A stretch of 58,993 nucleotides of DNA from positions 1 through 58,993 of the forward strand of contig JACQVP010000014.1 of the NCBI GenBank assembly GCA_016209715.1, written 5' to 3'. Made by a program: the position numbers and the translations under genes. Each line of letters opens with the position of its first letter. Positions within the stretch are counted from its first letter, which is position 1. This document shows, one piece after another, positions 10,773-32,031 of the stretch. The notes beneath the pieces were generated by a model that was given only the letters and a program-made list of their open reading frames with translations, did not search any database and was not told the origin of the DNA. The stretch comes from Candidatus Omnitrophota bacterium. GTDB lineage: Bacteria; Omnitrophota; Omnitrophia; Omnitrophales; Omnitrophaceae.

Positions 10773-10780
10773 GTTGCCTC

Positions 10781-13700: not shown

Positions 13701-14218
13701 CAGGAAACCTTCTCGAATTGGTCGGTCCCGCGGGAATCGAATTTGTATTTGGTCTTGTTTTGCGCCGTGAGCTCGGGGAACCCGTCTTCGGCCCACTGGC
13801 GCCAGCCGCGCCGGACGATGGGATATTTCAACCGGTAAGGACCGTAAAGAAGGCGATGAAACGTGAAACCTTTGGCGCATTGCCGGGGATTCCAGTTGGA
13901 CGTGGCCTTGTTACCGTAGAGGTCGCTGTAGGTCTCGTAATCGTACTGGGAACCGAGGCGCACCACGACGCCGTTGCGAACGTAGGCCTTGGCGCGGCAG
14001 GCGTGCGTGTCATTGGGAGAGCAGACCCAGGAGAAAGTGCTGTCGTACCGGTACTGATCGCGGTAGATCTGCTCCCAGTCCCGGTCCGGGTAATGAGCGA
14101 GAGGGTTGGCAATTTCCTCGACCGGCTCGAGGGCCCAAAGCGAATCTTTCATCGCCAGAGCCATGCCGGCCGCCGTGAGTCCGGAAAGTTTCAAGAAGTT
14201 ACGCCGAGTCAGTTTCAT
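10781..14218 (-). CDS. Tat-exported molybdopterin alpha subunit of a periplasmic NXR/NarG-like type II DMSO reductase
   Basis: MKLTRRNFLKLSGLTAAGMALA Tat signal. The mature protein is about 1145 aa. The FS0-type motif VCSPNDTHACRAKAYVRNG is C-x3-D-x3-C when aligned to NarG H-x3-C-x3-C. Beta, gamma and chaperone genes are adjacent. The start is trimmed to the ATG at 14218. Confidence 0.9.
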   Translation of the reverse strand: MKLTRRNFLKLSGLTAAGMALAMKDSLWALEPVEEIANPLAHYPDRDWEQIYRDQYRYDSTFSWVCSPNDTHACRAKAYVRNGVVVRLGSQYDYETYSDLYGNKATSNWNPRQCAKGFTFHRLLYGPYRLKYPIVRRGWRQWAEDGFPELTAQNKTKYKFDSRGTDQFEKVSWDQALGYVAKGLMAVGKRYSGEEGKKKLLAEGYPEEMLAPMEGAGVRTIKMRGGMGLLGVFGKYGMYRLSNTMALLDAHLRGVGPDQAKAGRIWSNYTWHGDQAPGHPWVHGLQASDCDFNDLRSSKLIIQDGKNLVENKLTDSHWFIECMERGAKLVTITPEYSPPATKSDYWIPIRPASDTALFLGITRLMVDNGWYDKDFVLQFTDFPLLVRTDNLRRLRAAEIFADYRPGLKKDGPSFKYQGLTDEQYAKIGDFVIWDEAGNQPAALTRDDLGPALARKNIRPALEGTFKVRTVDGREIEVMTLFSLYRIHLRDYDLDSVVEMTRAPREMIEQLAKDLATIKPAAIHQGEGINHYFHATEMNRAAYLPLMLTGNIGKPGSGCHTWAGNYKAALFQGSPWTGYGFKGWVGEDPFHPNLDPAAPGKDVHAKVYFKDEEPAYWNHGDRPLIVDTPKDGRKVFTGATHMPSPTKVMMFTNVNLLNNAKHAYEMLKNVNPNVEMIVSIDIQMTASIEYADLALPANSWLEFEGLEVTASCSNPFLQIWKGGIPPVFDSRDDIMILAGIAEKLGELTGDARFRDYWKFALEGNREVYIQRLLETSTTTAGYKLPDIMSGKYGPPGGALMLFRTYPRVPFWEQVHAGEPFHTDTGRLHAYTDVAEAIEYGENFIVHREGPEATPYLPNVIVSSNPYVRPNDYGIAPAAEHWDDRSVRNIRMPWAEVKQTQNFLWEKGFRFYCLTPKSRHRVHSLWSNVDWHQIWDSNFGDPYRMDKRTPGVGEQQVHMNPQAAKELGINDGDYVYVDANPADRPYVGARPDDPFYKVARLMLRVKFNPAFPYNVVMMKHGTYIATEKSVKAHESRPDKRALSEGGAYQANFRYGSQQSVTRNWHMPMHQTDTLFHKAKVFMSFIFGGEADNHAVNTVPKETLVRVTKAEDGGLDGKGVWAPATTGFTPANESEVMKQYLSGGYFKG

Positions 14219-14220
14219 GG

Positions 14221-15891
14221 TCACTCCAGCTTGAGTTCGTTCCATATGGAAACCATCTTTTGTCCGTTCCGGTCTCTGTTTTCCCCGTCCCAGACCGCGA
14301 AAGCCGCCTGGACGGGCTCTCCTTTTTTAAACGTCAGGCGCTCCGCGTCCTCCGGGCGCAGCTTGCGCCGGAAAACAACGCGCCATTTGCCGTCCTGCCA
14401 GAAGCCGCGCACCTCCACCGCTTCAGTCTTGGGAAACATCGTGGTGAAGGTGCCGATCCCGCGCGCCATCCCCTCTTCGGCGGAAGCCCGCAGGGGATTT
14501 GAAACCGGGTTGCCGGCCCCCCAACCGGTCATGCGCTCCGGATCATGCCGGGCGGTTTGGGACCGGACCGCTTCAAAGCTCGCCCCATGCGCGTAATCCG
14601 CGTCCTCCGGATAATAATCGATGCCGGTCTCGGGATATCGCGAATCGATGTCTTTCCAGCCCTCGCGGTCCTCCTGCCAGGCGGCTTTCCAATGCCAGAA
14701 GAGAACGTCTTGGGCGGCGCTTCCCATGGCGAAGAGCGGCGGATCGGATTCGGCGGAAAACTGGATCGCCGCGCCGTCGGAAAAATCCTGCGGCGCCGCC
14801 ACGGAACGGTTGGGCACGGGGTCCGGCCATTCGAGATGGATCCCGATATTTTTCCCATCGTGCGCGGCGCGCACCTCGACCGCTTCCGCGCGTTCATTTC
14901 GCCACCAGAGCGGCGTGAGCGGGACGCGGACCGGCTCGATCTTGAGCCAGGCCGCGGCCAGAGGGTCGATCTCCACGCCTCCGCGGAGGCGCTTGGCGCG
15001 GAGAGTCATCCGCTCCAACTGGGCCCGGCCTTCGGCCCCTTCGGCCGGCAAAGTCTGGACGTAATGAATCAAGTCCCAGATCTGCTCATCCGTGAAAACG
15101 CCTTGATAGCCCGGCATGGGAGAGCCCGGGAGGCCGGCCAGGACGCGGTAATACAATTCGCGGGACGACGAATCCGCTTTGAAAACGCCGGCCGTGAGGT
15201 CCCGGGGTTTTACCGGAACGCCCTGGCTGTCGATCATTCGCTGCTGGCCGTCGCCTTTTCCTTCCAGCCCGTGGCAGGGCGCGCAGGCCTTGACGAAAAG
15301 TTCACGCCCCTGGGCGAGACCCGCCGGGTCCGCGGACGTTTCGGCCGGCACCGCGATCACGGCCGCTGGATCGACCTCCTTCCGCATCATCTTCTCGAGC
15401 ACGGCCCAGGGAATTTCAGTCTTCAGCATCTCGTCCGTCAATTCCCCCTTCCCGAGATAGGCACGGGTCTCCGCCAGGGTCCGCACGTAATAGACGAGCG
15501 CCCAGCGCTGATTTTCGCTCAAGTGCTTCCAGGCCGGCATGGAGGAGCCGGGCATGCCCCGGCTGATGCTTTTGAAGAGATCCTCGTCGGTGGCGGTCAT
15601 GTCGGTCGTCGATATCAGGCGGAATTCGTCGCGGGAAAAATTGCGCGGCTTGGGATACAGGAGATACGACGCCGGACCGTCTCCTTCGCCTTTCAGCCCG
15701 TGGCAGGTCGTGCATTGCTTGAGATAAAGGTCGCGCCCCAACCGGTAAAGTTCCGGGCTAGGGACGGGTTTCACGGCGGCCTCCCGGGCGTCTATCGGCT
15801 GCCAGAACGCGAACACCGCGACGAGGACGGCAATCCCCGTGGCTGAAGCGACGGCCTTCAGAATGTCGAACCGGTCGGCGGGGTCGCTCAT
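14221..15891 (-). CDS. Membrane-anchored gamma subunit: dihaem cytochrome c fused to an EB_dh (NxrC/EbdC-like) domain
   Basis: N-terminal TM (ILKAVASATGIAVLVAVFAFW), CTTCH and CAPCH motifs each followed by a Met-containing loop, and a C-terminal half resembling NxrC/EbdC haem-b domains. Lies immediately upstream of alpha. Confidence 0.75.
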   Translation of the reverse strand: MSDPADRFDILKAVASATGIAVLVAVFAFWQPIDAREAAVKPVPSPELYRLGRDLYLKQCTTCHGLKGEGDGPASYLLYPKPRNFSRDEFRLISTTDMTATDEDLFKSISRGMPGSSMPAWKHLSENQRWALVYYVRTLAETRAYLGKGELTDEMLKTEIPWAVLEKMMRKEVDPAAVIAVPAETSADPAGLAQGRELFVKACAPCHGLEGKGDGQQRMIDSQGVPVKPRDLTAGVFKADSSSRELYYRVLAGLPGSPMPGYQGVFTDEQIWDLIHYVQTLPAEGAEGRAQLERMTLRAKRLRGGVEIDPLAAAWLKIEPVRVPLTPLWWRNERAEAVEVRAAHDGKNIGIHLEWPDPVPNRSVAAPQDFSDGAAIQFSAESDPPLFAMGSAAQDVLFWHWKAAWQEDREGWKDIDSRYPETGIDYYPEDADYAHGASFEAVRSQTARHDPERMTGWGAGNPVSNPLRASAEEGMARGIGTFTTMFPKTEAVEVRGFWQDGKWRVVFRRKLRPEDAERLTFKKGEPVQAAFAVWDGENRDRNGQKMVSIWNELKLE

Positions 15892-16049
15892 TTTTTGTCG
15901 TCCGCCCCCCCTCCGGCGGTCCGGCCCTTTTTGAATTCGCGAATCCCCTCGCCAAACGACCGCGCCATTTCCGGGATGCGCTTGGCTCCGAACAACAGCA
16001 ACAGCACTGCCAAAATCAATGCCAATTCCAACGGCCCGGGCAAATTCAT
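15888..16049 (-). CDS. tatA: Twin-arginine translocase subunit TatA/E (53 aa, below the ORF-track cutoff)
   Basis: My translation is MNLPGPLELALILAVLLLLFGAKRIPEMARSFGEGIREFKKGRTAGGGRDDKK. It has the canonical FG-x-KR-(I/L)PE hinge and ATGA overlaps with both neighbours. Confidence 0.85.
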   Translation of the reverse strand: MNLPGPLELALILAVLLLLFGAKRIPEMARSFGEGIREFKKGRTAGGGADDKK

Positions 16050-16606
16050 TTTCTTTTCCCTCCTTCCGCCGCCCTGATTTTTCGCACCAGGATCTTCTTC
16101 TCTTCCGGGTTCAGGTCACGGCTGATAGTCTTGTAGACGCTCACGTTTTCGTTATAAAGGTGATGCCGCAGCAGATAAATAAGATAGGTCCCCGTTTCCT
16201 GCATTTTTTCCAGGGACAGCAATCGTTTGCCGGCGTCATTCTCGCGGTCGACCGCCCGCAGGCTCGCGTTGAATTCGATCAAGGTCTTCTCGAAATCCGC
16301 GTGCTCCGAGCGGAGCAGGCGGATGACGGATTCCATCTTCGGTACGTGCTTTTCCAGAAACGGAAAAATGACCGTCTCTTCCAGGCGCGCGTGATGCCGC
16401 ATCACCCGGTTAAAAAAGAGCCGCAGGCGGTTGGCCTCCTTGAGATTCTTCCCGAGCGAGAGCTTCCCCTCGTATCGGATGTTGGTCAAGACGTCGGAAA
16501 GCTTTTCCGTCTCCCGGAAGCTTTCTTCATGCTCGGCCTCGAGCTCGTTCAGGCAATCGCTGAATTTGGGGGCCCGAATATTTTTAGCGATCATCTCTTT
16601 TTTCAT
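16046..16606 (-). CDS. Hemerythrin (HHE) domain protein, first gene of the NXR-like operon
   Basis: RHHARLEETVIFPFLEKH and LLRSEHADFEK His/Glu motifs; 186 aa. Confidence 0.65.
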   Translation of the reverse strand: MKKEMIAKNIRAPKFSDCLNELEAEHEESFRETEKLSDVLTNIRYEGKLSLGKNLKEANRLRLFFNRVMRHHARLEETVIFPFLEKHVPKMESVIRLLRSEHADFEKTLIEFNASLRAVDRENDAGKRLLSLEKMQETGTYLIYLLRHHLYNENVSVYKTISRDLNPEEKKILVRKIRAAEGGKRK

Positions 16607-16616: not shown

Positions 16617-16659
16617 ATGGTAACCCCGCTCGCGGCGGCCGTCTGTGATGTTCGTCACG
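16617..16659 (-). promoter_or_regulatory. CRP-type operator CGTGACGAACATCACA (16644-16659), then 21 nt, then the -10-like TACCAT (16617-16622); putative NXR-like operon promoter
   Basis: Read directly. Followed by GACG like the other sites. The predicted TSS is only about 4 nt before the ATG at 16606. Confidence 0.5.
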
Positions 16660-17656
16660 GCGCGAGCGAATCCGTGAGGCGTTCGGCGGCGCGCTCTCCG
16701 CTCATGACGCAGCTGAACACGCTCACCCCGTCGTAAGCATTGCCGGCCAGGGCGAGCCCGCGCCAGGGGCGCAACAAGTTCTCGATCCGGCGCTTCCAAA
16801 AGGAATGCCCCGGCCCGTACCGGGGCACGGCCCGCCGGTGGCGACGGAGGCAATAAAAATCAGGCGATTCGCGAAGGCCGCATTTGCGGGCCAAGCGGGC
16901 CTGCATTCGGCGAACAATCGCCTCATCCGTCAAGGGCGAAGACTCTTCATCCCAGGAAAGCATCACCCGGACGAGACGCCGGTCCGGCGGCGCGTGTTCG
17001 GGAAATTTTTGCGCTCCCGCCAGGCCCTCCCGGAATCGGATCCGAGCCGGCACGGACAAGCCGGGCCGTGCGGGATAGCCCATATACAGGGAAATCACCG
17101 AACAGTAGGACAGCTCGCTCAGCGCCTGAGACAAACGCGGGGCCCAGGATGCGAGCAGCGCCGCCGCGGCGGGGGCCGGGACGGCGAGGCAAACGCCGTC
17201 GGCTTCGAGGAGGCTCAAGTCGTCGAGCAACACATACCATTTCCCCCGGATCCCCTGCCAAACCCGGACGGCCCGGCCCGTCTTGCGGCAGCCCGGCGGC
17301 AGGGCTTGAAAATACGCCGTGGGCAAACTTCCGAGCCCCCGCCGGAAAGAGAACACCGGACGTTTAAAAAAAGGAAATCGAAAGCCGGGCCCGAAGGCAC
17401 AGAGGATATCAGCGGCCAACCCGGCGCTTTCCCAATAGCCCGCGGGCCAGGGCTTGAGCGCGGAGAGCGCGTCCGGACCGTGCTCTAAAAGGGCTCCCTC
17501 CCGGGCTTCGGTTTCGATCAAACCGCCGAGCCGCGGCTGCGCCTCGATCAGCACCAGCTCGACCGCGAGCGAACGCTCTTGCGAGAGCCGGGCGATCCGG
17601 CGCGCCGCGCTCAACCCCGCGATCCCGCCGCCGACAACGATCAGGGTGCGACGCAT
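16655..17656 (-). CDS. FAD-dependent oxidoreductase, short protoporphyrinogen/amine-oxidase-like protein
   Basis: N-terminal LIVVGGGIAGLSAARR dinucleotide fold. At 333 aa it is shorter than typical HemY. Confidence 0.55.
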   Translation of the reverse strand: MRRTLIVVGGGIAGLSAARRIARLSQERSLAVELVLIEAQPRLGGLIETEAREGALLEHGPDALSALKPWPAGYWESAGLAADILCAFGPGFRFPFFKRPVFSFRRGLGSLPTAYFQALPPGCRKTGRAVRVWQGIRGKWYVLLDDLSLLEADGVCLAVPAPAAAALLASWAPRLSQALSELSYCSVISLYMGYPARPGLSVPARIRFREGLAGAQKFPEHAPPDRRLVRVMLSWDEESSPLTDEAIVRRMQARLARKCGLRESPDFYCLRRHRRAVPRYGPGHSFWKRRIENLLRPWRGLALAGNAYDGVSVFSCVMSGERAAERLTDSLAP

Positions 17657-18777
17657 GAGCCCAAATAGTCGCCGGGGTGCGGTTCCCTGAGACCGAGGTC
17701 CGGGAAGCGCCGAAAAAAATTTTCATGAAAGAGATAATCGAGGCCTTCGTTGGACGGCGGCGAAAATCCCATGACCTCTTTCCACACCGTCTTGTTCTCC
17801 ATGCAGAAATAGATGAGGACTTCCTTCCAGCGCGAACGCAGGCCGGAATAAATGCCGCGGTAAATGGCCGTCCGGACCGGACGGAAATAACGGAGCTTGC
17901 CGTCCGTCCCGCGCACCATTTCGGCGGACGTGATGCGGGTGCGCGGAAACCGCCTTTCGATGACCGGCTTGAGCGGGGGCGGGAAACGCAGGCTTCCCAG
18001 ACTGATCCAGGCCACGTCTTCCTCATTCACGGCGGAAAACAGCTCCCGGATCAATCCCGCGTATTCCTCTTCCCATCCCGGAAAATCAAGCAACGGATCG
18101 AAATGAAACCCCAGCCGGTATCCCTTGGCCGCGGCGCGGGCCGCCGCCTCCAGCCTTTCCCGGACGGGGGCCGTCTTGTGCTCCTCCGTCTCCACGATGC
18201 GAGCGGGGTTCAGGGACCAGGAGACCACCACATTTCTCGTCGCGATCGGCGGCAGATGCCCCACGAAATCCGTCTTCGTCTTAAACTCGAGGATGACCGG
18301 ACGGGTCTTCGCGGCCTGGATCAGGGCGGTGTTGAATCCGGTCAAGGGATCGAGCGCCAAGGAGTCCGTCAGTTCCCCGGTGCCGATCCGCAACATCCGG
18401 CCCGGCAGGCGCTCGATCAACCGGTCCAACTCCTCCGGAATGATTTCCAAATTGGCGTAGAGCGTCAGGGCCGTCTGGTTGAGATAACCTTGCAGAATGC
18501 AATACGTGCAATCCCAGGGACAATTCGCCTGAATGTTGAGCACCCAATAATTGCAACAGAGGTAGGAAGCATCGGTGCCCGGGCAGGGTTTCAGGAACGG
18601 GCCTTTGAAGCGAGTGATCCAGAGCGACCGCTTCCCCTCGGCGGGAGAAAGCGCCCGAGCGGCGAGTGCGGTCTCGTCCGTGAATTCGAAAGGGATCCCG
18701 CGCAATTTGTTCAGGACCCGCGTCGCGAGCGGCGTCTCGCGAACGTCGGAATCGACGTAAATTTTATCGATCTTCAT
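17641..18777 (-). CDS. Spore-photoproduct-lyase-family radical SAM protein
   Basis: CPWDCTYC cluster motif. GYRLGFHFDPL and RRFPRTRI blocks resemble SplB (GYKLGFVVAPI, RYPKTRL). Confidence 0.6.
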   Translation of the reverse strand: MKIDKIYVDSDVRETPLATRVLNKLRGIPFEFTDETALAARALSPAEGKRSLWITRFKGPFLKPCPGTDASYLCCNYWVLNIQANCPWDCTYCILQGYLNQTALTLYANLEIIPEELDRLIERLPGRMLRIGTGELTDSLALDPLTGFNTALIQAAKTRPVILEFKTKTDFVGHLPPIATRNVVVSWSLNPARIVETEEHKTAPVRERLEAAARAAAKGYRLGFHFDPLLDFPGWEEEYAGLIRELFSAVNEEDVAWISLGSLRFPPPLKPVIERRFPRTRITSAEMVRGTDGKLRYFRPVRTAIYRGIYSGLRSRWKEVLIYFCMENKTVWKEVMGFSPPSNEGLDYLFHENFFRRFPDLGLREPHPGDYLGSCVAP

Positions 18778-19751
18778 CGTCCGAATTCGAAGCCTTCGGC
18801 GCGCAGGTCCTCGAAGTCACTTTCCAGAGCATTCCCGGGCGTCGTTAGAAGGTCCCCCACGATCAAACCGTTCACCCCCGCGCGCAGGGCCTCTCTCTGC
18901 CATCCGCCGAGTTGCAGCCGCCGCCCTCCCGCCAAACGGAGAGGCGAACCGGGCAGGATCAGACGGAACACCGCCACGGTTTTCAACACCTCGATCGGAT
19001 CGAGCAAGGGCTGGTTCTCGAGCGGCGTGCCGGGGCGCGGATCGAGCAGATTGATGGGCACGCATTCGGGGGCGTAGGTCCGGATCTCAAAGGCCGCATC
19101 CACCCGGTCCTCTCGCGTCTCTCCCATTCCCAAGAGCACCCCGCAGCAGAGTTCGAGGCCGGCCGCCCGCGCCGCGCCGAGAGTGGCCACGCGGTCCTCG
19201 AAGCTATGCGTGGTCGCAATCCGCTCATAAAATGAGGACGATGTTTGAATGTTGTGATTGATGCGGCGGATCCCGGCCTCTTTAAGGCGCCGGGCCCGGA
19301 CAAAATCGAGAAAACCGACGGAAGCGTCCAAATGGAGGGTGACGGCGCGCCGGACGGCGGCGATTATTTCAAGGAGTTTGCCGAATTCCGCGTCGGTAAG
19401 CTTCCCTCCGGAAGTGACGATGCAAAACTCGTCGCAGCCGCGGTCTTCGGCCTGCTTCGCCTTCTCCAGCACGGCCGCTATTTCCAGAAGCGGATATCGC
19501 GGGATCCCGGTCTTGTAGCGGACCGACTGCGCGCAAAAAGCGCAATCTTCGGCGCAGAGGCCGCTTTTGGCATTCACGATCGAGCACAACCCGGCCCTCC
19601 GGCCTTGAAATTTTCTCGTGACGGCGACGGCGAATTCGAAAAGGCGGCTGATTTCGGAAGGATTTTCCAGGCGGAGCAATCCCAGATAGGAGTCACGGGA
19701 AAGGAGCTTGCCGTCAAGGGCCTGACGCCCCACCCAATCGACCGATTGCAT
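18774..19751 (-). CDS. bioB: Biotin-synthase-like radical SAM enzyme
   Basis: SGLCAEDCAFCAQS, INHNIQTS, CCGVLLGMGE, VPINLLDPRPGTPL and RLAGGR blocks parallel BioB. Confidence 0.7.
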   Translation of the reverse strand: MQSVDWVGRQALDGKLLSRDSYLGLLRLENPSEISRLFEFAVAVTRKFQGRRAGLCSIVNAKSGLCAEDCAFCAQSVRYKTGIPRYPLLEIAAVLEKAKQAEDRGCDEFCIVTSGGKLTDAEFGKLLEIIAAVRRAVTLHLDASVGFLDFVRARRLKEAGIRRINHNIQTSSSFYERIATTHSFEDRVATLGAARAAGLELCCGVLLGMGETREDRVDAAFEIRTYAPECVPINLLDPRPGTPLENQPLLDPIEVLKTVAVFRLILPGSPLRLAGGRRLQLGGWQREALRAGVNGLIVGDLLTTPGNALESDFEDLRAEGFEFGR

Positions 19752-19756: not shown

Positions 19757-19799
19757 TATATAGCCAAAGGCTGGCAAATCGTCTGTGACGGCAGTCACA
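19757..19799 (-). promoter_or_regulatory. CRP-type operator TGTGACTGCCGTCACA (19784-19799), then 21 nt, then the -10 TATATA (19757-19762); putative bioB-like operon promoter
   Basis: A perfect TGTGA-N6-TCACA followed by GACG. The hexamer ends 5 nt before the bioB ATG, so the mRNA may be leaderless. Confidence 0.55.
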
Positions 19800-19804: not shown

Positions 19805-20485
19805 TTAGGAGAGGAGGTCGCGGAGGCCTTTTTCGTCGAGAATGGCGATGGACTTGGGCAGGATATCGATCAGCTTCGCGCGCTTCAGCTGATAAAGGTA
19901 ACGGGCGACCGTCTCGCGCGAGGTGCCGATGCGCTGGGCGAGTTCTTCCCGCGTGAAATTGACGCTCAACACGTCTTTTACGTCTTTTTTCGAGCCGGGC
20001 GCGGCCTGAGCGGAACGCATGTCCAGCAGGAACTTGGCCAGCCGCTTTTTGACGTCCTTCAGCGAAACCTCCTCGATGAGAGAGGTGAAACAGCGGAGGC
20101 GGTCGGCGAACAGGCGATTGAGGGTGCGGGCGAGTTTATGGTTGTTTTGCACCATCCTCACATAATCGTCGCGGGACAAGAAAAGAACTTTGCAGTCGGT
20201 CATGGCTTCGGCCGAAGCGGAGCAAAACCAGGTAAAAGAACCCGGATTGCAGGCGCAGGTGTCTCCCGGGCCCAGCATCTCCAGGATCTGTTCGCGGCCG
20301 GAGGACGCCGTGCGGTAAAGCTTGACCCGTCCGGAGTGGACGAAGAACACCCTCTCGCACAAATTACCTTCATGAAAAAGCAGGTCGCCTTTGGCGAACG
20401 ACTTCTCGCGCATGACCTGCTTGATCGTGCCAACTTCGCTCTCCGACAGGCCTTGGAAGAACGGGATACCTTTGGGGATCTCCAT
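19805..20485 (-). CDS. Crp/Fnr-family transcription regulator with a CRP-like recognition helix
   Basis: cNMP-binding-like N-terminal half and a C-terminal HTH, ELAQRIGTSRETVARYL (RE-x3-R as in CRP RETVGR). No FNR-type N-terminal Cys cluster. Contains an internal CAC...C group (DTCACNPGSFTWFC). Confidence 0.85.
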   Translation of the reverse strand: MEIPKGIPFFQGLSESEVGTIKQVMREKSFAKGDLLFHEGNLCERVFFVHSGRVKLYRTASSGREQILEMLGPGDTCACNPGSFTWFCSASAEAMTDCKVLFLSRDDYVRMVQNNHKLARTLNRLFADRLRCFTSLIEEVSLKDVKKRLAKFLLDMRSAQAAPGSKKDVKDVLSVNFTREELAQRIGTSRETVARYLYQLKRAKLIDILPKSIAILDEKGLRDLLS

Positions 20486-20526
20486 GCCAACTCTATCTTG
20501 TCAGAGGCGGCCTAAAAGTTCAAGGC

Positions 20527-21336
20527 TTAAGAATAAGCGTGGAGAGAAGCCAGCCAGAAATTGACGCCGAAATAGGTAAACATCACCAGAAAGAAACCGA
20601 AAAACGCGAGCACGGCAAAGCCCCGGCCGGATCCGTTTTCCATCGACCGCACATGATGAAGGGCCCCATACAAGGCCCAGGTGATGAAGGCCCAGGTTTC
20701 CTTGGGATCCCAGTTCCAATAGCGACCCCAGGAAGCGTTGGCCCAGACAGCGCCGGTGGAAATGCCCAGCGTCAAAAAAGCGAATCCGACCGCGATGAGC
20801 CTCGCCATCAGTCGGTCCAAATACTCCAGCCGGCCTTCGATCTCGCCGCGTTTTTCCGGCCGGGAGACAAATTTCCTCGCCGCGTCCAGGAATAAATAGA
20901 TGCCGGCCGTGCCGAATGCCACGGCAAAAGAGGCGTAGCCGAGGATGGCCGCCGTAACATGGAAGAGCAGCCAATTGCTTTTCAAGGCCGGCAGAAGGGG
21001 CTCAATATCGGATGACAAGAGCGAGCACAATCCGAGCAGGACGGCGGCCGTCAGACCGGCGAACCCCCCTACGGAAAGCGCCCGGAATTTCGGGAAGGTG
21101 GTCCAGTAAATGGCCATCATGAGAAAACCGAGCAAAATCAGGGTTTCGTAAGTATTGGACCATGGGAGATGGCCCGCCTGGACCCCGCGGATGGCGATCA
21201 CGGAGCCGTGAAAAGCAAGCAGCCCGAGACCCATCGAGATTGCGGACCAAAACCAAATCCTCCCTCCGGAAACGGCTGCGGAAAAGGATACCAGGGCAAA
21301 GAGAAGATAACATAACATCAAAATGCCGATGATCAT
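20527..21336 (-). CDS. ccsA: Cytochrome c biogenesis (System II) haem-handling protein
   Basis: WGRYWNWDPKETWAFITW tryptophan-rich haem motif and polytopic sequence. The start is trimmed to the ATG at 21336 (an ATGA overlap). Confidence 0.85.
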   Translation of the reverse strand: MIIGILMLCYLLFALVSFSAAVSGGRIWFWSAISMGLGLLAFHGSVIAIRGVQAGHLPWSNTYETLILLGFLMMAIYWTTFPKFRALSVGGFAGLTAAVLLGLCSLLSSDIEPLLPALKSNWLLFHVTAAILGYASFAVAFGTAGIYLFLDAARKFVSRPEKRGEIEGRLEYLDRLMARLIAVGFAFLTLGISTGAVWANASWGRYWNWDPKETWAFITWALYGALHHVRSMENGSGRGFAVLAFFGFFLVMFTYFGVNFWLASLHAYS

Positions 21337-22637
21337 CTCACACCGCCCCCCTTCACAACCGGTTCCAGTTCCCTCAGTATGATCCCGGCTTCGTATTTCA
21401 AGCCCGCGGGATCTTTGACGCAGGCGCCTGAACATTCATAGGAGCTCTCTTCCCCGCGCCGCTCGGGAACAAAAGAAATCCGTATGCCCCGCGGGATGAC
21501 AAAGGCACTCAGAAAGGCACCCAGGATCATGACCACAAAGCCCGCATAGGCAAGCGGCCAGCCCGGATCATAGCTCACTTTCATCCCGGAAGAGTAAATC
21601 TTCCGGATCCTCCCGATGGCAAAGGCCCATTCTGCGGGACCAGCGCCCTGATGCAAAAATAGATCGGAGAATACCCAAATCTGCTTCTCGGGGGTATCGG
21701 GCGAGGTGGAAGTATACAAAAACAAGGAGACCGCGGGATTGCGGAAATAGGGAGAACGGCTCGCCGCTTTTCCGCCTTGAACGATGACAAAATCCGGAAC
21801 GATCTCACCCGCCTCGACCGTGTAAGGCAGCCCCGCGAGTCCTGATTTTTTACCCGGCGCGAGGGTGATTTCACCGAAGGGTTTGCCGTTTTTATAGACC
21901 CGGAGAACTACCTCCCGGATCTTCACGCTGTAACGCATCTGAAAAACCCGCACTCCCCCTATCTGCAGGGGGCCGTTCACACTCAAGTCATGGTGCTCGA
22001 TCCGTCCCTTCCGGTCCTGAACCAGTAAACGGCTCACGTAAGACGCGACATTGCCCGTCGCGTCCAGCATCACGCTGAATTTCTCCAATTTGATTTTGGC
22101 ACCTCCCCGCGCAAGCAAGGTCGTGGCGCCTTCTTGCAATTCGATGTCCCGGACGTCCGCGAACGAATAAGTCAAAAGCCCCGCGAGAAGGGCAACCACC
22201 AGTCCAGCATGGACCAGGAAACTGCCCCAAATGCCGTCCAAATCCTTAACGCCGGTAAAAGAGAACCGCAATTTCTCCATTTTCGCGATCACGCGGTATC
22301 TCTTCGACCTCAGGACCGATGAAATCCGATCCTGATACTCCTGCAGATCTGAAAATGGGATCCTGGCGGGTCGGAAATCTTGAAGGCGCGTCTCCCGCCC
22401 CGCGGTGGTAATCTCATCCGCGGCCGCCATCCGGAACAAATCGATCCCCTTGCGGACTGTGTGCGACACCGCGAAGACTCCCAGGAGTCCCAAAAAAGCG
22501 ACAAACGGCTTCGCCGCAAACAGGGCACTGGGATTTTTCAAAAAAGGGAGGGTACTTTCAGGAATGGTGCCGAACGCGGCCGCGGCGCAGATCAAAACGA
22601 TCAAAACATTGACAAAGCGCAGAATAGAAGTAGTCAC
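21333..22637 (-). CDS. ccsB: Cytochrome c biogenesis protein ResB/CcsB
   Basis: N-terminal TM helices, a large soluble domain, a C-terminal TM and translational coupling to ccsA. GTG start. Confidence 0.7.
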   Translation of the reverse strand: MTTSILRFVNVLIVLICAAAAFGTIPESTLPFLKNPSALFAAKPFVAFLGLLGVFAVSHTVRKGIDLFRMAAADEITTAGRETRLQDFRPARIPFSDLQEYQDRISSVLRSKRYRVIAKMEKLRFSFTGVKDLDGIWGSFLVHAGLVVALLAGLLTYSFADVRDIELQEGATTLLARGGAKIKLEKFSVMLDATGNVASYVSRLLVQDRKGRIEHHDLSVNGPLQIGGVRVFQMRYSVKIREVVLRVYKNGKPFGEITLAPGKKSGLAGLPYTVEAGEIVPDFVIVQGGKAASRSPYFRNPAVSLFLYTSTSPDTPEKQIWVFSDLFLHQGAGPAEWAFAIGRIRKIYSSGMKVSYDPGWPLAYAGFVVMILGAFLSAFVIPRGIRISFVPERRGEESSYECSGACVKDPAGLKYEAGIILRELEPVVKGGGVR

Positions 22638-22666
22638 TGAGGCCCATATTATTGGGGAACGAAGGA

Positions 22667-24817
22667 TTATTCAAACGCTTTCTTAAATCCGACGGTCACG
22701 CCCTGGCCAAAATACTCGTCGTTGTAACCGCTGAAACCTCGGCCGTCGTAGAATTTGAATATCTGGTAGCGGGCCTCGAAGGAGCAGGTCTTGCTGATAT
22801 CGTACTGGATCCCCGCGGTCACCTCATTCATGGTGTTCCGATTATCGCCGAGGGAATCCGTCAATTGATACCCCGTGGACAGCACGCTCTTCTTGGTCAG
22901 ACGATAATTCAGATTGGAAACCAGATAATATACGTCTCCGTTAAAATCGTAAGCGCCTGTGCCGCCCGACCAATTGCTCCTTCCGGTAGCGTCCGTCGGC
23001 GTATCCACGCGGTAATAATCGTACATTCCGGCGAAATACCCGAATAAATTCCGGATCACCGGTCCCGAGAAAGCCATCGAAAAGCGATCCCGGTCCAAAT
23101 TCTGCTGCTGATCTCCGACTTTGGGAAATTCAATATTGTCCATGATCCATTGGTATTTCAAGGTCGAGATCCACGCCGCCGGCAGTTTCACGTCTAAGTT
23201 CGCAGTGATTTCCTGCACCATCCGCTCCTGATCGCCCAGATAACCGGGATAATATCGAGGCAACGTGTCCGACCGGGTGTTGTACTGACGCTCTCTCTGC
23301 TGCCATTTGTACTGCAGATTCGCCTTCATCCTCGAATTCAACCTCTGGGCTATCTTCACTTTCGGCACGTAGTCCAGATAAGTGACATTGGTTTCATAAC
23401 TCAGTTCGGGCGCTCCGGATCCCCAACCCGCATCCGTGAAGATTTCATGATTGCGCGCGTCAAATGTTTCTTTCCAATTCAAACGCCGCTGCTCGAGATC
23501 AATGCCCGCGTAAGCGGTAGTCCCTTGACGCCGGTACGTGACCGACAACGCTTCCCCAAACCAGCCTTCGCTCAAATTGGTATCGGAGGACCGGAGGTTA
23601 TTGATCCCGCCCGCGATCAACGTGCCATGATTGTCCGTCACGGCATGCTCGCCGCGAAATCCGAACCGCATATCGAGACCCTTCCGCCGCAGAAAATCCA
23701 GCATGGCGCTTCCCGCGCTCACGGTATTGCTGACCCTCCAGTTGTCGACATCCGGGCTCCAATAAATATTGGGATTGGCCAGATTCGGCCGGACCTCGCT
23801 GCGGACACTGTCATTCCGGAGAAAATTGAAGAAATAGCCCCCGTGCACGTAAACATCGTCGGACCAGAAGCTGTCGTACTTCGTTTGGAGTTTGATATCG
23901 TGAAATTGGTAGCGGTCGATATAGTCGCGCTTCTGAGCAAGGACTCCATTCGTGTATCTCGTCGAATCGGTAAACTGGCCGTCTTGATAGGCTTCATATG
24001 AAATCAGCGGCTCAATATTGTGTTTCTCGGCAACCTTCATCGGAAGACTGAGAGTGAATTTGTTGCTCACTCCATCCACCTGCCGTCTCATTGAAATAGA
24101 GCGCAGAGACGGCAATCCCGTGCGCGTGGCCACGTCCCCCTTGAGCAGGGTCTCCCTGCCTTCGCGAGTCCATAAGCCGTATTTAAAAATCAGTTTTGAT
24201 GTTTCCGATACCGGATACCCCAATTCCACATCGACATTTCCGCGGTCCGTATAAAGATCCTCGTCCGTCCAATCTCCGAACTCATCTGGCAGACGATACT
24301 GAGATGGATCCCACGGCTTGTCTTCCGTGCCATTCCAATATTTTCTAAACCGCTTCCATCTTGCATCCAGATAATAACCGCCCTCTTTTGAAACGCGCAT
24401 GTCAGCCAAATAGCTGTAATTGACGAGGGCCTTCCCCTTGAACTCCGTGGTGATGTCGCCGGAAGCATCCTTAAAATACAAGCCCCTTACCCCGCCCGTC
24501 GTCTGGTCATCCGTATACCAGTCTTCCCGAAACCGGCCTCTATCGCCTTTCACGTAGTAATGAGTGATCGAAGGTGCGACCACAAAAAGATCCGGGCTCG
24601 CCCCCGGAAAATCACCGAAGTATTTCTCCTTTAGATTCTGTGTCGCCTGCGCGGAACTCGGAGCAGCATTTTGCGCAGAAGGCTGCGGCTGGCTTTCTGT
24701 TATTTCTTTGGTCTCGGAAATCGCAATCTCGTCGGCATTAGCATTCAAGGAGGCGAAACACAAAATCCCGACCGTCAGGAGAACCGCCCCAAAGCCACCG
24801 CGGAGATGGATTCTCAT
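22667..24817 (-). CDS. Outer-membrane beta-barrel protein (MtrB/PioB-like porin of a porin-cytochrome pair)
   Basis: Signal peptide ending SLNANA-DE and 716 aa with alternating aromatic/polar strands (YxY, FxF) throughout. The start overlaps the stop of the cytochrome gene (ATGA). Confidence 0.65.
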   Translation of the reverse strand: MRIHLRGGFGAVLLTVGILCFASLNANADEIAISETKEITESQPQPSAQNAAPSSAQATQNLKEKYFGDFPGASPDLFVVAPSITHYYVKGDRGRFREDWYTDDQTTGGVRGLYFKDASGDITTEFKGKALVNYSYLADMRVSKEGGYYLDARWKRFRKYWNGTEDKPWDPSQYRLPDEFGDWTDEDLYTDRGNVDVELGYPVSETSKLIFKYGLWTREGRETLLKGDVATRTGLPSLRSISMRRQVDGVSNKFTLSLPMKVAEKHNIEPLISYEAYQDGQFTDSTRYTNGVLAQKRDYIDRYQFHDIKLQTKYDSFWSDDVYVHGGYFFNFLRNDSVRSEVRPNLANPNIYWSPDVDNWRVSNTVSAGSAMLDFLRRKGLDMRFGFRGEHAVTDNHGTLIAGGINNLRSSDTNLSEGWFGEALSVTYRRQGTTAYAGIDLEQRRLNWKETFDARNHEIFTDAGWGSGAPELSYETNVTYLDYVPKVKIAQRLNSRMKANLQYKWQQRERQYNTRSDTLPRYYPGYLGDQERMVQEITANLDVKLPAAWISTLKYQWIMDNIEFPKVGDQQQNLDRDRFSMAFSGPVIRNLFGYFAGMYDYYRVDTPTDATGRSNWSGGTGAYDFNGDVYYLVSNLNYRLTKKSVLSTGYQLTDSLGDNRNTMNEVTAGIQYDISKTCSFEARYQIFKFYDGRGFSGYNDEYFGQGVTVGFKKAFE

Positions 24818-25590
24818 CGGTTGAATGTCCTCCAGGTATTGGATCCATGCGGTGAACGGTGATGATCCACGCAGTTTTCACCGGGGCCAATGAAGTAATT
24901 TCCGCCGCCCGCGCCGTGCGGCACGCCGCCGATATTACCAGCCTGATTATTGGTATTGGGCTCCCAGTGGCATCGCAGACAGAGCGCATTGTCGTCCGCG
25001 ACGAGCAATTTTGCATAAACGCCGCCGTGGGGTTCATGGCAAACCTGACAGCCGTCCCGCATCGCGTCGTGCTCGAAGACAAACGGCCCTTTGTATTCCT
25101 TATGGCATTTAAAGCATTTTTCGCTGGATCGTTCCAAATCGGTGACGGAATGTGATGCCCGGTCGGCGTTATGCATGCCATGGCAGTCCATGCACGCCAT
25201 TTGCCCTTCCGTCACGGGATGATGAAATTGAAGTTGAAACTGAGCCTTTTTGTCCAGATGGCAGGCGAAACAACGCTCCGTATCATAGCGTATGATCTTT
25301 GTTTTATCTCCGCTGCCGTCCACATGCAGACTTCCGGGACCGTGGCAGGATTCACAGGCCTCCCCGGTGATTTTCTCTCCCTCTTCTAAACTAGTCCCGA
25401 AATGGGATTCCAAGCGGTGCCGCTTCACGACGTCCTCATGGCAAGCGGCGCAGGTTTCCATTCCGACGTATTCGGCCCCCGGTATCGTATGCTGCTCAAG
25501 AGCATTGCGGATTTCTTCATAGTCCCGGCAGGAGGAAATATAAAATGCTGTGAGTGCAAAAATTGGGAGCAACAGGTAACGAAGTTTCAT
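24814..25590 (-). CDS. Heptahaem c-type cytochrome lipoprotein
   Basis: Lipobox FYISSC. Seven CXXCH motifs (CAACH, CESCH, CFACH, CMDCH, CFKCH, CQVCH, CLRCH) with paired CXXCH-x-PH spacing, plus a terminal CVDHH. Confidence 0.85.
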   Translation of the reverse strand: MKLRYLLLPIFALTAFYISSCRDYEEIRNALEQHTIPGAEYVGMETCAACHEDVVKRHRLESHFGTSLEEGEKITGEACESCHGPGSLHVDGSGDKTKIIRYDTERCFACHLDKKAQFQLQFHHPVTEGQMACMDCHGMHNADRASHSVTDLERSSEKCFKCHKEYKGPFVFEHDAMRDGCQVCHEPHGGVYAKLLVADDNALCLRCHWEPNTNNQAGNIGGVPHGAGGGNYFIGPGENCVDHHRSPHGSNTWRTFNR

Positions 25591-25605
25591 AATCGCATTT
25601 TAATA

Positions 25606-25621
25606 GGCCAGAATCGTGCCA
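25606..25621 (-). promoter_or_regulatory. Sigma54 (-24/-12) promoter TGGCACGATTCTGGCC
   Basis: The minus strand reads GTTGGCACGATTCTGGCCTA. TGGCACG is perfect, the GG-N10-GC spacing is correct, and it lies about 15-30 nt upstream of the cytochrome ATG in the 48-nt gap after the NtrC-type regulator gene. Confidence 0.6.
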
Positions 25622-25638
25622 ACTTCATGAAGGGGAAA

Positions 25639-27096
25639 TTACTGTTCAGAGTTCTGAGATTGGGTGTTTTGGCTCAAGTCGGCTGGATCTTCCGTGTCAT
25701 TCAACCCATATTTTCCCATTTTATACCGCAAAGCGTCCCGGCCAATGCCCAGCATGCGTGCGGCCTTGGACTGATTCCCCGATGCCGCTTCCAGCGTCTG
25801 GATCACAAGCTGTTTTTCGATTTCATCCAGCGGAACGGACAAGAGACAGGTGGGCAATTTATTGGAGGGCTTGCCGGAAGACGGCGCGCTTCCTTCCGAC
25901 TTGTAATCCTTCAGCACACAGCCGCAATCGATCTCCGCCGGAAGATGATGGGTCCGGATGAGGGTTTCTTCATTCAGGATCATCGCCCTTTCGATGATGT
26001 TTTTGAGCTCCCTCACGTTCCCGGGCCATTTATAATTCAGGAGCATTTCCAGCGCGTCCGGCGCGATGCCGGAAATCGATTTTTTGAATTCCCGGTTGAA
26101 GTGGGCAAGGAAATAGCCCGCTAATGCCGGGATGTCCTCTTTCCGCTCACGCAGCGGATGAAGATAAATAGGCACGACGTTCAGCCGATAGTAAAGGTCT
26201 TCCCGAAAGCGCCCCTCCCGGACTTCCACCTTCACGTCTTTGTTCGTCGCCGCGAGGATCCTCACGTCGGCCTCAAGTTCCTTGACCCCGCCGATCTTGC
26301 GGAATTTTTTCTGATCGATGAGATGGAGAAGTTTTGCCTGGAGCTCCTTCGGCATATCGCCGATCTCGTCCAGGAAAAGGGTTCCTCCCTGCGCTTCTTC
26401 AACCAGCCCTTTTTTAGACTGACGCGCGTCCGTGAAAGCGCCCTTTTCATACCCAAACAATTCGCTCTCGAGAAGGGTCGCCGGAAGCGCGGCGCAATTC
26501 ACGGCGATGAAGGGACGCGCCGCCCGGCGGCCCCCATAATGGATCACACGGGCGAGCAGGTCCTTGCCCGTGCCGCTGGCGCCCTCGAGAAGCACGGTGG
26601 ACGCCTCCGAAAGACATATCTGCCTCACCAAATCGAGCACCCGTTTCATGAAAACACTTTCGGCTACGATATTGGACCAATCATATTTTCCACGTTCGAT
26701 GGACTCCCACTCATGGATCTTTTTCCGCAATTTCCTTCTCTCAATCGCTTTTTCGATATTGAGCTTGAGTTCGTCAAATTGAAACGGCTTGTGCAGATAA
26801 GTGAACGCCCCTGCCTGCATGCATTCGACCGCGCTCCGGATGTCATCATTCGCGGTGATGACCAGGACGGAGACCAAAGGATCCCGCTTCATCATTTCCA
26901 TCAGAACATCCTTCCCGTTTCCGTCCGGGAGGCGCAAGTCCAGGATGACCACGTCGACCACGTCCTCTTCAAAGAGCCGCAATCCCGCGCCGGCCTTCGT
27001 GGCCGTAGCGACTTCATACCCTTCGCGCGTCAAATCTTTTTCCAACGACCAGCAAATCAATTTTTCATCATCCACGATCAATATTTTGGCCTTCAT
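25639..27096 (-). CDS. Sigma54-dependent response regulator (REC + AAA+ + Fis-type HTH)
   Basis: ILIVDDE...DLRLPDG receiver, GASGTGKD Walker A, GAFTDA sigma54-contact loop and a C-terminal QSKAARMLGIGRDALRYKM HTH. Confidence 0.9.
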   Translation of the reverse strand: MKAKILIVDDEKLICWSLEKDLTREGYEVATATKAGAGLRLFEEDVVDVVILDLRLPDGNGKDVLMEMMKRDPLVSVLVITANDDIRSAVECMQAGAFTYLHKPFQFDELKLNIEKAIERRKLRKKIHEWESIERGKYDWSNIVAESVFMKRVLDLVRQICLSEASTVLLEGASGTGKDLLARVIHYGGRRAARPFIAVNCAALPATLLESELFGYEKGAFTDARQSKKGLVEEAQGGTLFLDEIGDMPKELQAKLLHLIDQKKFRKIGGVKELEADVRILAATNKDVKVEVREGRFREDLYYRLNVVPIYLHPLRERKEDIPALAGYFLAHFNREFKKSISGIAPDALEMLLNYKWPGNVRELKNIIERAMILNEETLIRTHHLPAEIDCGCVLKDYKSEGSAPSSGKPSNKLPTCLLSVPLDEIEKQLVIQTLEAASGNQSKAARMLGIGRDALRYKMGKYGLNDTEDPADLSQNTQSQNSEQ

Positions 27097-28634
27097 CCCA
27101 TCCTCCCCGCCTCCACAGAGGCCTCGTCCACCGCAGACTCCGCCGCGGCCGGCAAAATGATGCTTAAAATCGTTCCCTTCCCGGGAAGGCTTCGTGCCCG
27201 GATCGAGCCGTGGTGGGCCTCGATGATCCCCTTGGAAACCGACAGCCCCAATCCTGTTCCGTCCGCGCGCGTAGTGAAAAAAGGTTCAAAGATGGAGGCC
27301 AAGACGTCTGCGTCCATTCCCAAGCCGGTGTCCTCCACTTCGGTGAGAACTCCGTCCGGGACGGGCTCGATGCGAACGCTCAAAACGCCGCCTTCCGGCA
27401 TGGCGTTTGCGGAATTTAAGAACAAGTTCAGAAAGACCTGCTCCAACTGCCCTTCGTCCCCGCACACGGCCAATCCCGGGGATTTCGCCGTCACCTGAAA
27501 GCGGATGTTCCGCGACCTGAGAAAATGCTCCGCCAAATGAAATGCCTGCTGGACCGGGTCGGCGAGCGGGCACCGATCAAAAGAGGGCGGCTTTTGCCGC
27601 GCGTACCTCAAAAGATTATGAAGGGTCTTTTCGATGCGCCCAACCTGCATGATGAGCTCCGTAAAAATTTCGGGGTCCTGCCCGGGCTGAAGCTCGCTCT
27701 TGAGCGCATGGAGCGTCGAACTCATCGCGGCCAGCGGATTTTTAATTTCATGCGAAATATTGGAAATGAATTGCCCGAGAGAAGCCAGACGGTTTGAATG
27801 TGCAAGTTCGCGGCGGTGCTGTTCGGCAATTTTCTGCTGGGCCCGGCGAAAGCCGCGGATCATGGCGTTGAAGCTTTCTGAAAGGCGTTTCAAATCCGCA
27901 TCGCCCCGGATAGAAATCTTGGCATCGAGTTGCCCGCGCTGCGCTTTCTCCATCTCCGATATCAGCTGCCGAATGGGTTTGCGCACAATGGTCCGGACGA
28001 CCCACCGGATGAGGACCGCACTCAGCAGGATGATGCCGCCCGCGGCGATAATCATGAAGAGCCGGTTTTCGGCGAAGCGTTTGAAGATCGGCGCCAGGGA
28101 GACGTGAAGCTCGATCCCTCCCAACGCGGCCCCGGGGACAACGTCATGGCAGCGCATGCAGGCGGCCCGGCTGTGCACGGGATGCACGATCCGGAGGGTC
28201 CCCTTCGCACCCTTCTCCTGGAAGTGGATCACGCCTTGGTCGCGCGTAAAACGGTCCGCATCGGTCGTCGTCAAATCGACTGCCTGGTCGATTTTACGAG
28301 GGACCGTTGAAAAACGAATAATCCCTTTCGCATTGAAGATGTTGATCTCCGCGAGACCCAGACGATCTTTTTCGCTCCCGATCACCTGCTGCAATTGTGC
28401 CGGGTCGAACGTTTCGTTCATCATGGTCTCGATCAGCTTTCCCTTAAGGTACTGCGCCTGGTAGAGGGACGTCGTCACCAGCGTTTCGGCGATCCGCTTG
28501 GAAGCCCCTTTCATCAAAGCGAAGGCGCCGATCCCCACGATGAGACACACCACGGCGCCGACGGTCAGGACGAGTTTCACGGTCAGGGATTGAAACAGGA
28601 TCCTTTCCAAAAAGCCGGCCCTCCTAGTTCCCAT
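27093..28634 (-). CDS. Sensor histidine kinase with a periplasmic CXXCH (haem c) domain, HAMP, HisKA and HATPase
   Basis: Two TMs flank an approximately 150-aa loop containing CMRCH. H-box NISHEIKNPL; N/G boxes LNSANAM and DTGLGM...GTGLGLS. Confidence 0.85.
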   Translation of the reverse strand: MGTRRAGFLERILFQSLTVKLVLTVGAVVCLIVGIGAFALMKGASKRIAETLVTTSLYQAQYLKGKLIETMMNETFDPAQLQQVIGSEKDRLGLAEINIFNAKGIIRFSTVPRKIDQAVDLTTTDADRFTRDQGVIHFQEKGAKGTLRIVHPVHSRAACMRCHDVVPGAALGGIELHVSLAPIFKRFAENRLFMIIAAGGIILLSAVLIRWVVRTIVRKPIRQLISEMEKAQRGQLDAKISIRGDADLKRLSESFNAMIRGFRRAQQKIAEQHRRELAHSNRLASLGQFISNISHEIKNPLAAMSSTLHALKSELQPGQDPEIFTELIMQVGRIEKTLHNLLRYARQKPPSFDRCPLADPVQQAFHLAEHFLRSRNIRFQVTAKSPGLAVCGDEGQLEQVFLNLFLNSANAMPEGGVLSVRIEPVPDGVLTEVEDTGLGMDADVLASIFEPFFTTRADGTGLGLSVSKGIIEAHHGSIRARSLPGKGTILSIILPAAAESAVDEASVEAGRMG

Positions 28635-32009: not shown

Positions 32010-32031
32010 CAAAGTCCCTCTTAGCTGTGCA

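Follow-up and report, generated by a model that had tools for sequence, protein, structure and literature searches.

A regulator of the Crp/Fnr family is encoded at 19805-20485 on the minus strand of an Omnitrophota contig (JACQVP010000014.1, positions 1 to 58,993; "the window" refers to this whole 58,993-bp stretch). It is followed by a palindromic operator, O3, whose layout recurs at three other positions of the window (O1, O2, and O4). In our assessment, it is likely that a dimer of this regulator binds these sites as class II operators and activates four promoters, those of units for respiration, bioB, nitrite oxidoreductase (NXR), and molybdenum cofactor (Moco) synthesis. The evidence consists of the sites, their geometry, their conservation in related genomes, the co-variation between recognition helix and operator, and the content of the genes that follow.

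In the proposed mechanism, the dimer would read TGTGA(C)-N4-(G)TCACA via the helix residues R190, E191, and R195. Once bound, it would recruit RNA polymerase to promoters that are expected to be weak on their own, as in class II activation. The −10 element would be of the sigma-70 type, and the −35 element overlapped by the operator would be degenerate, keeping only "GAC." From O4, the regulator would switch on multihaem cytochromes, a two-component system, and cytochrome c maturation genes. It would probably also switch on itself, since its gene probably lies within this operon, and this would constitute a positive feedback. O3 would control bioB and two further genes, O2 the hemerythrin-tatA-NXR genes, and O1 a Moco riboswitch together with the molybdenum-cofactor pathway.

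Operators and promoter layout

The focal copy, O3 (minus strand, 19799 to 19784), is separated by five nucleotides from the stop of the regulator gene. Its sequence, TGTGACTGCCGTCACA, is a perfect TGTGA-N6-TCACA, followed by GACG and, exactly 21 nt after the site, by TATATA (19762 to 19757), then GGAGT and an ATG at 19751. Direct reading of the minus strand thereby bears out the original prediction, as it does for the three other loci where this prediction had seen the same layout. O1 (TGTGATTTGCATCACA, 7310-7325) begins 2 nt past the stop of the upstream open reading frame (ORF), O2 (CGTGACGAACATCACA, 16644-16659) contains the TGA stop of a PPO-like gene, and O4 (TGTGATGCCGATCACT, 32059-32074) lies behind a terminator described below. 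All four are on the minus strand and point toward minus-strand genes. Exact TGTGA-N6-TCACA sites occur twice in the window, against 0.02 expected, and none of 100 dinucleotide shuffles reached two. When one mismatch was allowed, five matches were found, four of them with the shared layout. The fifth (51498-51513) was rejected, as it scored 4.6 bits, had no hexamer, and carried its mismatch at an invariant position. We also scanned the window with a position weight matrix (PWM) trained on 61 sites from other Omnitrophota genomes, from which the window sites were excluded. This independent matrix picked the same four operators, at 25.5 (O3, the window maximum), 23.3 (O1), 20.4 (O2), and 16.2 bits (O4), with a runner-up of 9.2 bits within a coding region, in agreement with the earlier statement that there are no further full sites.

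The hexamers placed 21 nt past the sites are TATCCT for O1 (7283-7288), TACCAT for O2 (16617-16622, 10 nt before a hemerythrin ATG), TACTCT for O4 (32032-32037, with AGAGGGA preceding an ATGATG at 32009), and the −10-like TATATA for O3 (19757-19762, 5 nt before the bioB ATG), all on the minus strand. The claim that TAnnnT is found at all four thus stands for O1, O2, and O4 and fails for the focal TATATA, which has no 3′ T at −7 and scores lower as a −10 element than the other three (2.0 bits, against 6.6 to 8.1 bits). The background frequency of TAnnnT in this 60% G+C window is 0.0032 per position, and by our own arithmetic the probability of three further hexamers at one fixed offset is about 3e−8, so that the recurrence is not due to chance.

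It had also been proposed that these promoters have no −35 box, in contrast to two housekeeping promoters of the contig. The latter are canonical, both with a perfect TTGACA and a 17-bp spacing (TTGACA-17-TATATA from 51736 to 51708 and TTGACA-17-TAGAAT from 58899 to 58871). At this same spacing, three of the four promoters read CAGACG (3/6 matches to TTGACA) and the fourth CTTTCG. At O3, CAGACG (19780-19785, minus strand) shares the last 2 nt of the operator. The −35 element is therefore poor, with only 2 to 3 of 6 matches, and a sigma-70 consensus scan called no promoter at any of the four sites, but it is not entirely absent, because three promoters keep G-A-C. The 21 bp from the operator core to the −10 element place the operator center at about −41.5, overlapping the degenerate −35 element. 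The window copies hence have the features of class II promoters (a site near −41.5, a weak −35, and a −10), with TAnnnT at +21 in three of the four. The riboswitch that follows O1 and the terminator that precedes O4 would be independent signs of transcripts starting at the hexamers.

The same layout was found beyond the window. A contig scan with the single regulator protein as query returned no relatives; an alignment of 30 regulator homologues (A1) used as query succeeded and yielded 68 loci from species representatives of GTDB, almost all of them Omnitrophota metagenome-assembled genomes (MAGs). The closest relative, L069, has a regulator 87% identical to that of the window. In 908 kb around the orthologous regulators there are 37 exact sites, against 0.8 expected from shuffles. 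The hexamer TAnnnT stands at exactly +21 in 64 of the 101 sites with at most one mismatch and at +22 in 9 more, with counts of 0 to 7 at all the other offsets from 5 to 44 nt, which supports the class II geometry proposed for the window. Among the exact sites, 31/37 have TAnnnT at +20 to +22, and the remaining 6 have near-consensus hexamers at +21 (AATAAT twice, CATACT, CACAAT, GACACT, or TAAAAG). The motif logo reads (T/A)GTGA(C/T)-N4-(G/A)TCAC(A/T), with C/G at the inner positions (TGTGAC..GTCACA) in 47/64 sites. On the promoter side, a G directly follows the site in 58/64 aligned promoters; A/C and then C come next. This asymmetric G-A/C-C is the remnant of the −35 element. The aligned promoters showed no enrichment of an extended −10 (TGn). 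Their spacers between site and hexamer are not conserved, so these promoters are independent of one another and do not stem from a repeated element.

The operator is associated with the end of the regulator gene. In about 50 of the 62 loci with enough sequence, the stretch from −5 to +115 nt relative to the regulator stop contains a site with no more than two mismatches, and at seven loci (L004, L007, L014, L020, L027, L037, and L038) the TGA stop of the regulator is the TGA of the operator. More generally, the operators are squeezed between genes that are no more than about 50 nt apart, as in the window, where the stop of the PPO-like gene (16655-16659) falls within O2. Clustering of the first ORFs behind the sites singled out one main target, a protein that resembles hemerythrin, has about 180 aa, and occurs in this place at 38 loci. 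It is the orthologue of the window gene at 16046-16606 (Pfam Hemerythrin; H/HxxxE motifs). It had no relatives of solved structure at an E value of 0.01 or less. Its gene is directly downstream of the regulator in 46/66 loci. Other first genes encode Rrf2 regulators, radical-SAM proteins, HemA, PFOR, a multicopper oxidase, a COX2-like cupredoxin, HSP20, CorA, and rhodanese. The order regulator, operator/promoter, hemerythrin gene thus appears, from these gene neighborhoods, to be the ancestral module of the phylum. The original prediction had not recognized hemerythrin, rather than bioB, as the ancestral target of the position occupied by O3.

The distances between hexamers and start codons are informative for the transcription start. 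In L050, L052, L056, and L058 the start codon lies 6 nt past the hexamer, without a Shine-Dalgarno sequence, and the N termini of the L052, L056, and L058 proteins align from codon 1. Such a distance would fix +1 and put the center of the site at −41.5. The hemerythrin starts of L045, L050, L052, L056, L057, L058, L039, L026, and L020, along with the window starts at 16606 and 19751, are 4 to 10 nt past the hexamer, and none of these starts has a Shine-Dalgarno sequence. This suggests that leaderless mRNAs may be common for this regulon in Omnitrophota.

The regulator and its sensor pocket

The regulator has 226 aa and is 100% identical to a protein annotated as "Crp/Fnr family transcriptional regulator." It matches the Pfam domains cNMP_binding (PF00027, 8.6e−21) and HTH_Crp_2 (PF13545, 3.5e−17), and in its AF2 model residues 116-140 and 179-202 are helical, with a Foldseek probability of 1.00 against CRP structures for the predicted fold. 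It therefore has the beta-roll, dimerization helix, and HTH_Crp_2 domain of the Crp/Fnr superfamily. Its nearest solved relatives, both in sequence and predicted fold, are the CRPs of Thermus (4ev0) and Mycobacterium tuberculosis and GlxR (27 to 30% identity). No curated NCBIfam cutoff was reached: the regulator scored 71 bits for CRP (NF008732), whose cutoff is 266, and 62.8 bits for Fnr, whose cutoff is 228.

The ORF contains SRETVARYL, in agreement with the RETVAR announced by the original prediction, and this gives a helix R190-E191-T-V-A-R195 equivalent to the R180-E181-x-x-x-R185 with which CRP reads TGTGA (for the R180/E181 rule, see PMC1274295). R-E-T-x-x-R is present in 62/66 orthologues. 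The exceptions L048 and L049, with R-V-T, and L053, with R-I-T, have no TGTGA site. Their operator, in the same place, is TGTATCTCCAGATACA (in L053, TATATC...); GA comes next, and TAnnnT stands at +21 or +22. The R-V/I-T regulators are thus paired with TGTAT-N6-ATACA (TGTATC-N4-GATACA), and the class II geometry is unchanged. One contig, CAYING010000003.1, carries both pairs, L048 (R-V-T, TGTAT) and L061 (R-E-T, TGTGA), each preceding its own hemerythrin gene. Together, the enrichment of the sites, their position near the regulator stop, and the co-variation between helix and operator support the earlier assignment of O1 to O4 to the adjacent Crp/Fnr-type regulator as its predicted binding sites.

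The effector-binding region differs from that of CRP. In the alignment to Thermus CRP (4ev0), "CAC...CSA" of the regulator pairs with "FGE...RSA," and C79 and C88 stand at the positions of the Glu and Arg of this motif. We take this Glu/Arg pair to be the cAMP-contacting E72/R82 of CRP in E. coli numbering. The residues of the phosphate-binding cassette that contact cAMP in CRP proper (G71-E72 and R82-S83, same numbering) are not found in the regulator. Four cysteines, C43, C77, C79, and C88, are present without exception in the 30 aligned sequences and at 66/66 loci, although the loci were retrieved with the peptide GDTCACNP, which includes C77 and C79, making the invariance of these two among the loci circular. 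An independent check, and the sole support for C77 and C79, came from an exhaustive profile search of 1.84 billion cluster representatives. About 28 clusters, scoring from 403 to 170 bits, all have C43, C-[A/S]-C-[N/H]-P, and C88, and clusters at 167 bits and below show F-[A/G]-E ... Y-P-A in these columns. This switch between 170 and 167 bits indicates a sharply bounded subfamily, with the motif C43-x33-C77-x-C79-[N/H]-P-x6-C88.

Since invariant cysteines stand in place of the residues by which CRP holds cAMP, the effector is most likely a redox, O2, or NO signal, which would act via a cysteine-bound cofactor or thiol chemistry, and cAMP is unlikely. The regulator appears to represent an uncharacterized, phylum-wide subfamily of Omnitrophota in which neither the sensor features that define CRP nor those that define FNR are found, and its cysteine-lined pocket is the part with the best chance of being novel. 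One might go further and propose that it defines a new sensory class, whose cNMP (cyclic nucleotide monophosphate) pocket is rebuilt as a four-cysteine Fe-S or metal site sensing O2, NO, or redox state, and which together with hemerythrin forms a phylum-wide switch of anaerobic respiration. This is conceivable, but we put it forward only tentatively.

The mechanism as such is canonical for Crp/Fnr class II regulators. The closest functional analogues are FNR/Anr and the HcpR1 of Desulfovibrio, while the nearest proteins by sequence and DNA specificity are CRPs. Like E. coli FNR and Pseudomonas Anr, the system has a Crp/Fnr dimer, a palindrome at −41.5, a poor −35, and a regulon that spans anaerobic respiration, a molybdoenzyme, and cofactor genes. 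The E. coli moaABCDE operon has both an FNR-dependent promoter and a Moco riboswitch (PMC2408646), a pairing comparable to that predicted for O1, and the FNR-type regulator Anr controls a hemerythrin (PMC12403760). Yet the operator is TGTGA-N6-TCACA instead of the FNR box TTGAT-N4-ATCAA, and the N-terminal Cys-x2-Cys-x5-Cys of FNR, which together with a central Cys ligates a [4Fe-4S] cluster, is missing: the regulator starts with MEIPKGIPFFQGL, with neither an extension nor cysteines, and its cysteines are in the beta-roll at the cNMP pocket. With the CRPs of E. coli, Thermus (4ev0), and M. tuberculosis and with GlxR it shares the R-E-x-x-x-R helix, the TGTGA-N6-TCACA core, and the class II geometry. 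It differs from them by having C79 and C88 where Thermus CRP has Glu and Arg, and by a regulon that is respiratory and cofactor related rather than catabolic.

HcpR1, of the HcpR regulon of Rodionov et al. (2005), likewise belongs to the FNR-like regulators found in anaerobes, and its motif is wTGTGAnnnnnnTCACAw (PMC1274295; PMC5701242). Predicted HcpR regulons often contain hemerythrin-, ferredoxin-, and cytochrome c-like genes and genes of nitrate/nitrite respiration (PMC1274295; PMC5701242), and HcpR1 is thought to sense NO through haem (PMC5701242). In contrast, the HcpR of Porphyromonas gingivalis has only 18% identity to the regulator in a structural alignment, and neither PMC1274295 nor PMC5701242 describes the cysteine motif. 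The HcpR targets hcp and frdX were found neither among the window genes nor among the 20 annotated first genes behind the other sites, with one contig considered per genome.

Competing readings and the bioB promoter

Several points weigh against activation of the whole set by this regulator, besides the circularity noted for C77 and C79. The activating role is deduced from geometry alone. The co-variation of helix and operator, seen in three related genomes and one paralogue pair, is probably a single evolutionary event. The window is one contig of a MAG, and the counts of operators and operons, hence the size given for the regulon, apply to that contig. Lastly, the hexamers of the focal promoter, TATATA in the window and TATAAA in L069, do not have the −7 T that is kept by all the other members of the family, so O3 may drive bioB weakly.

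This last point underlies an alternative in which O3 is a genuine operator but an ineffective promoter of bioB, a relic of the hemerythrin promoter, with bioB mainly read through from the regulator gene. O3 sits at the ancestral position right after the regulator stop, where the next gene is hemerythrin in 46/66 loci and bioB in the window and L069 only, and the hemerythrin gene of the window, with its own operator, is 3 kb further on. In the lineage of these two genomes, bioB has been placed behind the ancestral operator position. There is also no terminator between the regulator and bioB. Against the relic stand the features conserved between the two loci. The operator and GACG are identical (20/20) although the spacer has diverged, and the TATA(T/A)A block is maintained at 5 nt from the ATG (in L069, TATAAA lies at +22). 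Moreover, the consensus promoter at 51736 to 51708 also uses TATATA. Translation argues in the same direction. The BioB proteins of the window and L069 align from residue 1 (77% identity), and a 5′-terminal ATG is the simplest route for a gene without a conserved Shine-Dalgarno sequence. A GGAG does lie 1 nt before the window bioB ATG, but it was rejected as a Shine-Dalgarno sequence because of this 1-nt spacing and because L069 has TCCG there. A leaderless bioB mRNA is thus plausible on these features, and we regard the relic as unlikely.

A second alternative accepts regulator and operators but makes the protein a repressor that blocks RNA polymerase over the −35 and is released by a signal, following the model of Desulfovibrio HcpR2. 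Repressors of the Crp/Fnr family are documented (HcpR2 model, PMC5701242), the operator does overlap the −35 position, and G-A-C is still found there in three promoters of the window. However, a −35 element with 2 to 3 matches out of 6, which the sigma-70 scan did not call, would leave these promoters weak without help, and a 21-bp phasing that is near-invariant across unrelated targets and genomes is what a contact between activator and polymerase requires, not what steric repression does. Repression is accordingly improbable, more so than the relic.

We judge it very unlikely that the sites belong to another factor, either a Rex-type repressor (TTGTGAA-N4-TTCACAA) or a cAMP-CRP encoded elsewhere. 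Rex was reported on sites identical to the TGTGA-N6-TCACA of HcpR1 (PMC5701242), and a single contig of the genome is in view. Yet 47 of 64 sites have C/G and not A/T at their inner positions, the sites track the regulator gene in about 50 genomes, their geometry is of the activator type, and the window encodes no paralogue of the regulator. The change from TGTGA to TGTAT in the operator, which accompanies that from R-E-T to R-V/I-T in the helix, also argues against another factor such as Rex. Finally, one might see in the matches palindromes due to chance, terminator hairpins, or a repeated element present in several copies, for which the palindromic form alone speaks. This is refuted by the counts of exact sites (in the window 2, with 0.02 expected; in the related loci 37, with 0.8 expected), by the fixed geometry, by a stem of only 6 bp without a T-run, and by flanks and spacers that are not conserved between the copies.

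Operons behind the promoters

Activation from the four operators remains the preferred reading, and the genes they precede form a block of 27 kb with a single direction, punctuated by the four promoters. Gene annotation and the PWM scan agree with the earlier claim of four operons on this contig. Operon 4 (20527-32009, minus strand) starts with genes for a NapC/NrfH-like multihaem cytochrome, a multihaem cytochrome c-cytochrome b fusion, and a histidine kinase. These are followed by a sigma-54 response regulator, another multihaem cytochrome, a 716-aa protein without a family hit, ResB, and CcsA, with intergenic gaps of −34 to +48 nt on a single strand. The histidine kinase and the sigma-54 response regulator are embedded among the cytochrome genes (22667-32012, minus strand). 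The order ResB-CcsA-regulator-bioB is also found in L069, and operon 4 probably continues into the regulator gene, given a gap of 41 nt and no terminator. This gap (20486-20526, minus strand) has a TAGAGT 4 nt before the regulator ATG and neither a −35 hexamer nor an operator. Upstream of O4, an intrinsic terminator (32083-32132, minus strand) ends 8 nt before the operator. It has a 14-bp G+C-rich stem and a U9 tract (RNA fold of −39 kcal/mol, z = −4.0), and it belongs to a cytochrome c554-like gene at 32157-32687.

Operon 3 (16655-19751, minus strand) comprises bioB (18774-19751), an SPL-like radical SAM gene (17641-18777; PF20903), and a short PPO-like flavoprotein gene (16655-17656), with overlaps of 4 and 16 nt. 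The bioB assignment and its ATG 5 nt past the hexamer, already given by the original prediction, are secured by a TIGR00433 score of 348 bits (cutoff, 225). Of the PPO-like flavoprotein (333 aa), only residues 1-75 and 148-329, at its two ends, match the protoporphyrinogen oxidase model TIGR00562; it looks as though its center lacked some 190 residues.

Operon 2 (7328-16606, minus strand) begins with the hemerythrin-like gene (16046-16606), tatA (15888-16049), and an nxrC-like gene for a cytochrome c/EB_dh protein (14221-15891), which are joined by ATGA stop/start overlaps at 16049-16046 and 15891-15888. It continues with nxrA (10781-14245; 1,854 bits against Kuenenia NxrA, 7b04_B), nxrB (9268-10584), a NarJ-like chaperone gene (8547-9302), an unknown gene (7630-8790), and a ferredoxin-like ORF (7328-7702). 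A complete nitrite oxidoreductase cluster of the Nitrospira/anammox type (7328-16049, minus strand), translationally coupled to hemerythrin, is thus present on an Omnitrophota contig. A putative sigma-54 promoter for the NXR operon, TGGCAGTGCTGTTGCT (15997-16012, minus strand), was rejected, as a single match was found against 1.24 expected and it lies within the tatA coding sequence.

Operon 1 (2602-7143, minus strand) encodes, according to Pfam, MoaA (6130-7143), a MoaC/MoaB fusion (5226-6128), MoeA (3260-4834), MoaD (3021-3263), and MoaE (2602-3024). It is preceded by a Moco riboswitch aptamer (7132-7281, minus strand), which had been overlooked in the original prediction. This aptamer belongs to Rfam family RF01055, being upstream of moaA, covering the full model (1-135), and scoring 55.1 bits (E = 1.7e−10), above the gathering score of 36. 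Its conserved core begins about 12 nt past the O1 hexamer, and the Shine-Dalgarno sequence of moaA is part of its 3′ strand, which sets the start of moaA at 7143. The protein has the N terminus MKQDFLIDSFGRRISYLRIS, with AGGAG 5 nt before the ATG and a riboswitch leader of 133 nt. The ATG at 7242, which would give the longest ORF and a 40-nt leader, was discarded because it falls inside the aptamer.

Outside the four operons, a second radical-SAM/BATS protein (ThiH/HydG/BioB-like) is encoded downstream of the Moco genes (417-1568, minus strand). The sole long plus-strand gene of its region (33171-40481) is a giant gene of 2,436 aa with C-terminal GH94 supersandwich and catalytic domains. The only tRNA of the contig is a tRNA-Pro (TGG) at 52098-52172 on the minus strand.

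We found no description of Crp/Fnr or hemerythrin regulation in Omnitrophota in the literature searched. For these uncultured bacteria, the analysis provides a high-confidence predicted pair of transcription factor and operator. The PWM and the promoter model (a −35 remnant, a 21-bp gap, TAnnnT, and frequent leaderless starts) can be applied to any Omnitrophota genome, so that co-regulated respiratory and cofactor genes may be read out. The natural change of Glu to Val or Ile in the helix, with its matching operator, is a ready-made specificity experiment, and the former cAMP pocket, now lined with cysteines, offers a specific candidate for a novel redox-sensing version of a fold that has been studied at length. 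On this contig, a single predicted regulon would join an NXR-type enzyme, Tat export, a chaperone, Moco synthesis with its riboswitch, cytochrome c maturation, and multihaem cytochromes. If the regulator and hemerythrin do form a phylum-wide switch of anaerobic respiration, this switch would include the Nitrospira/anammox-type NXR found here.

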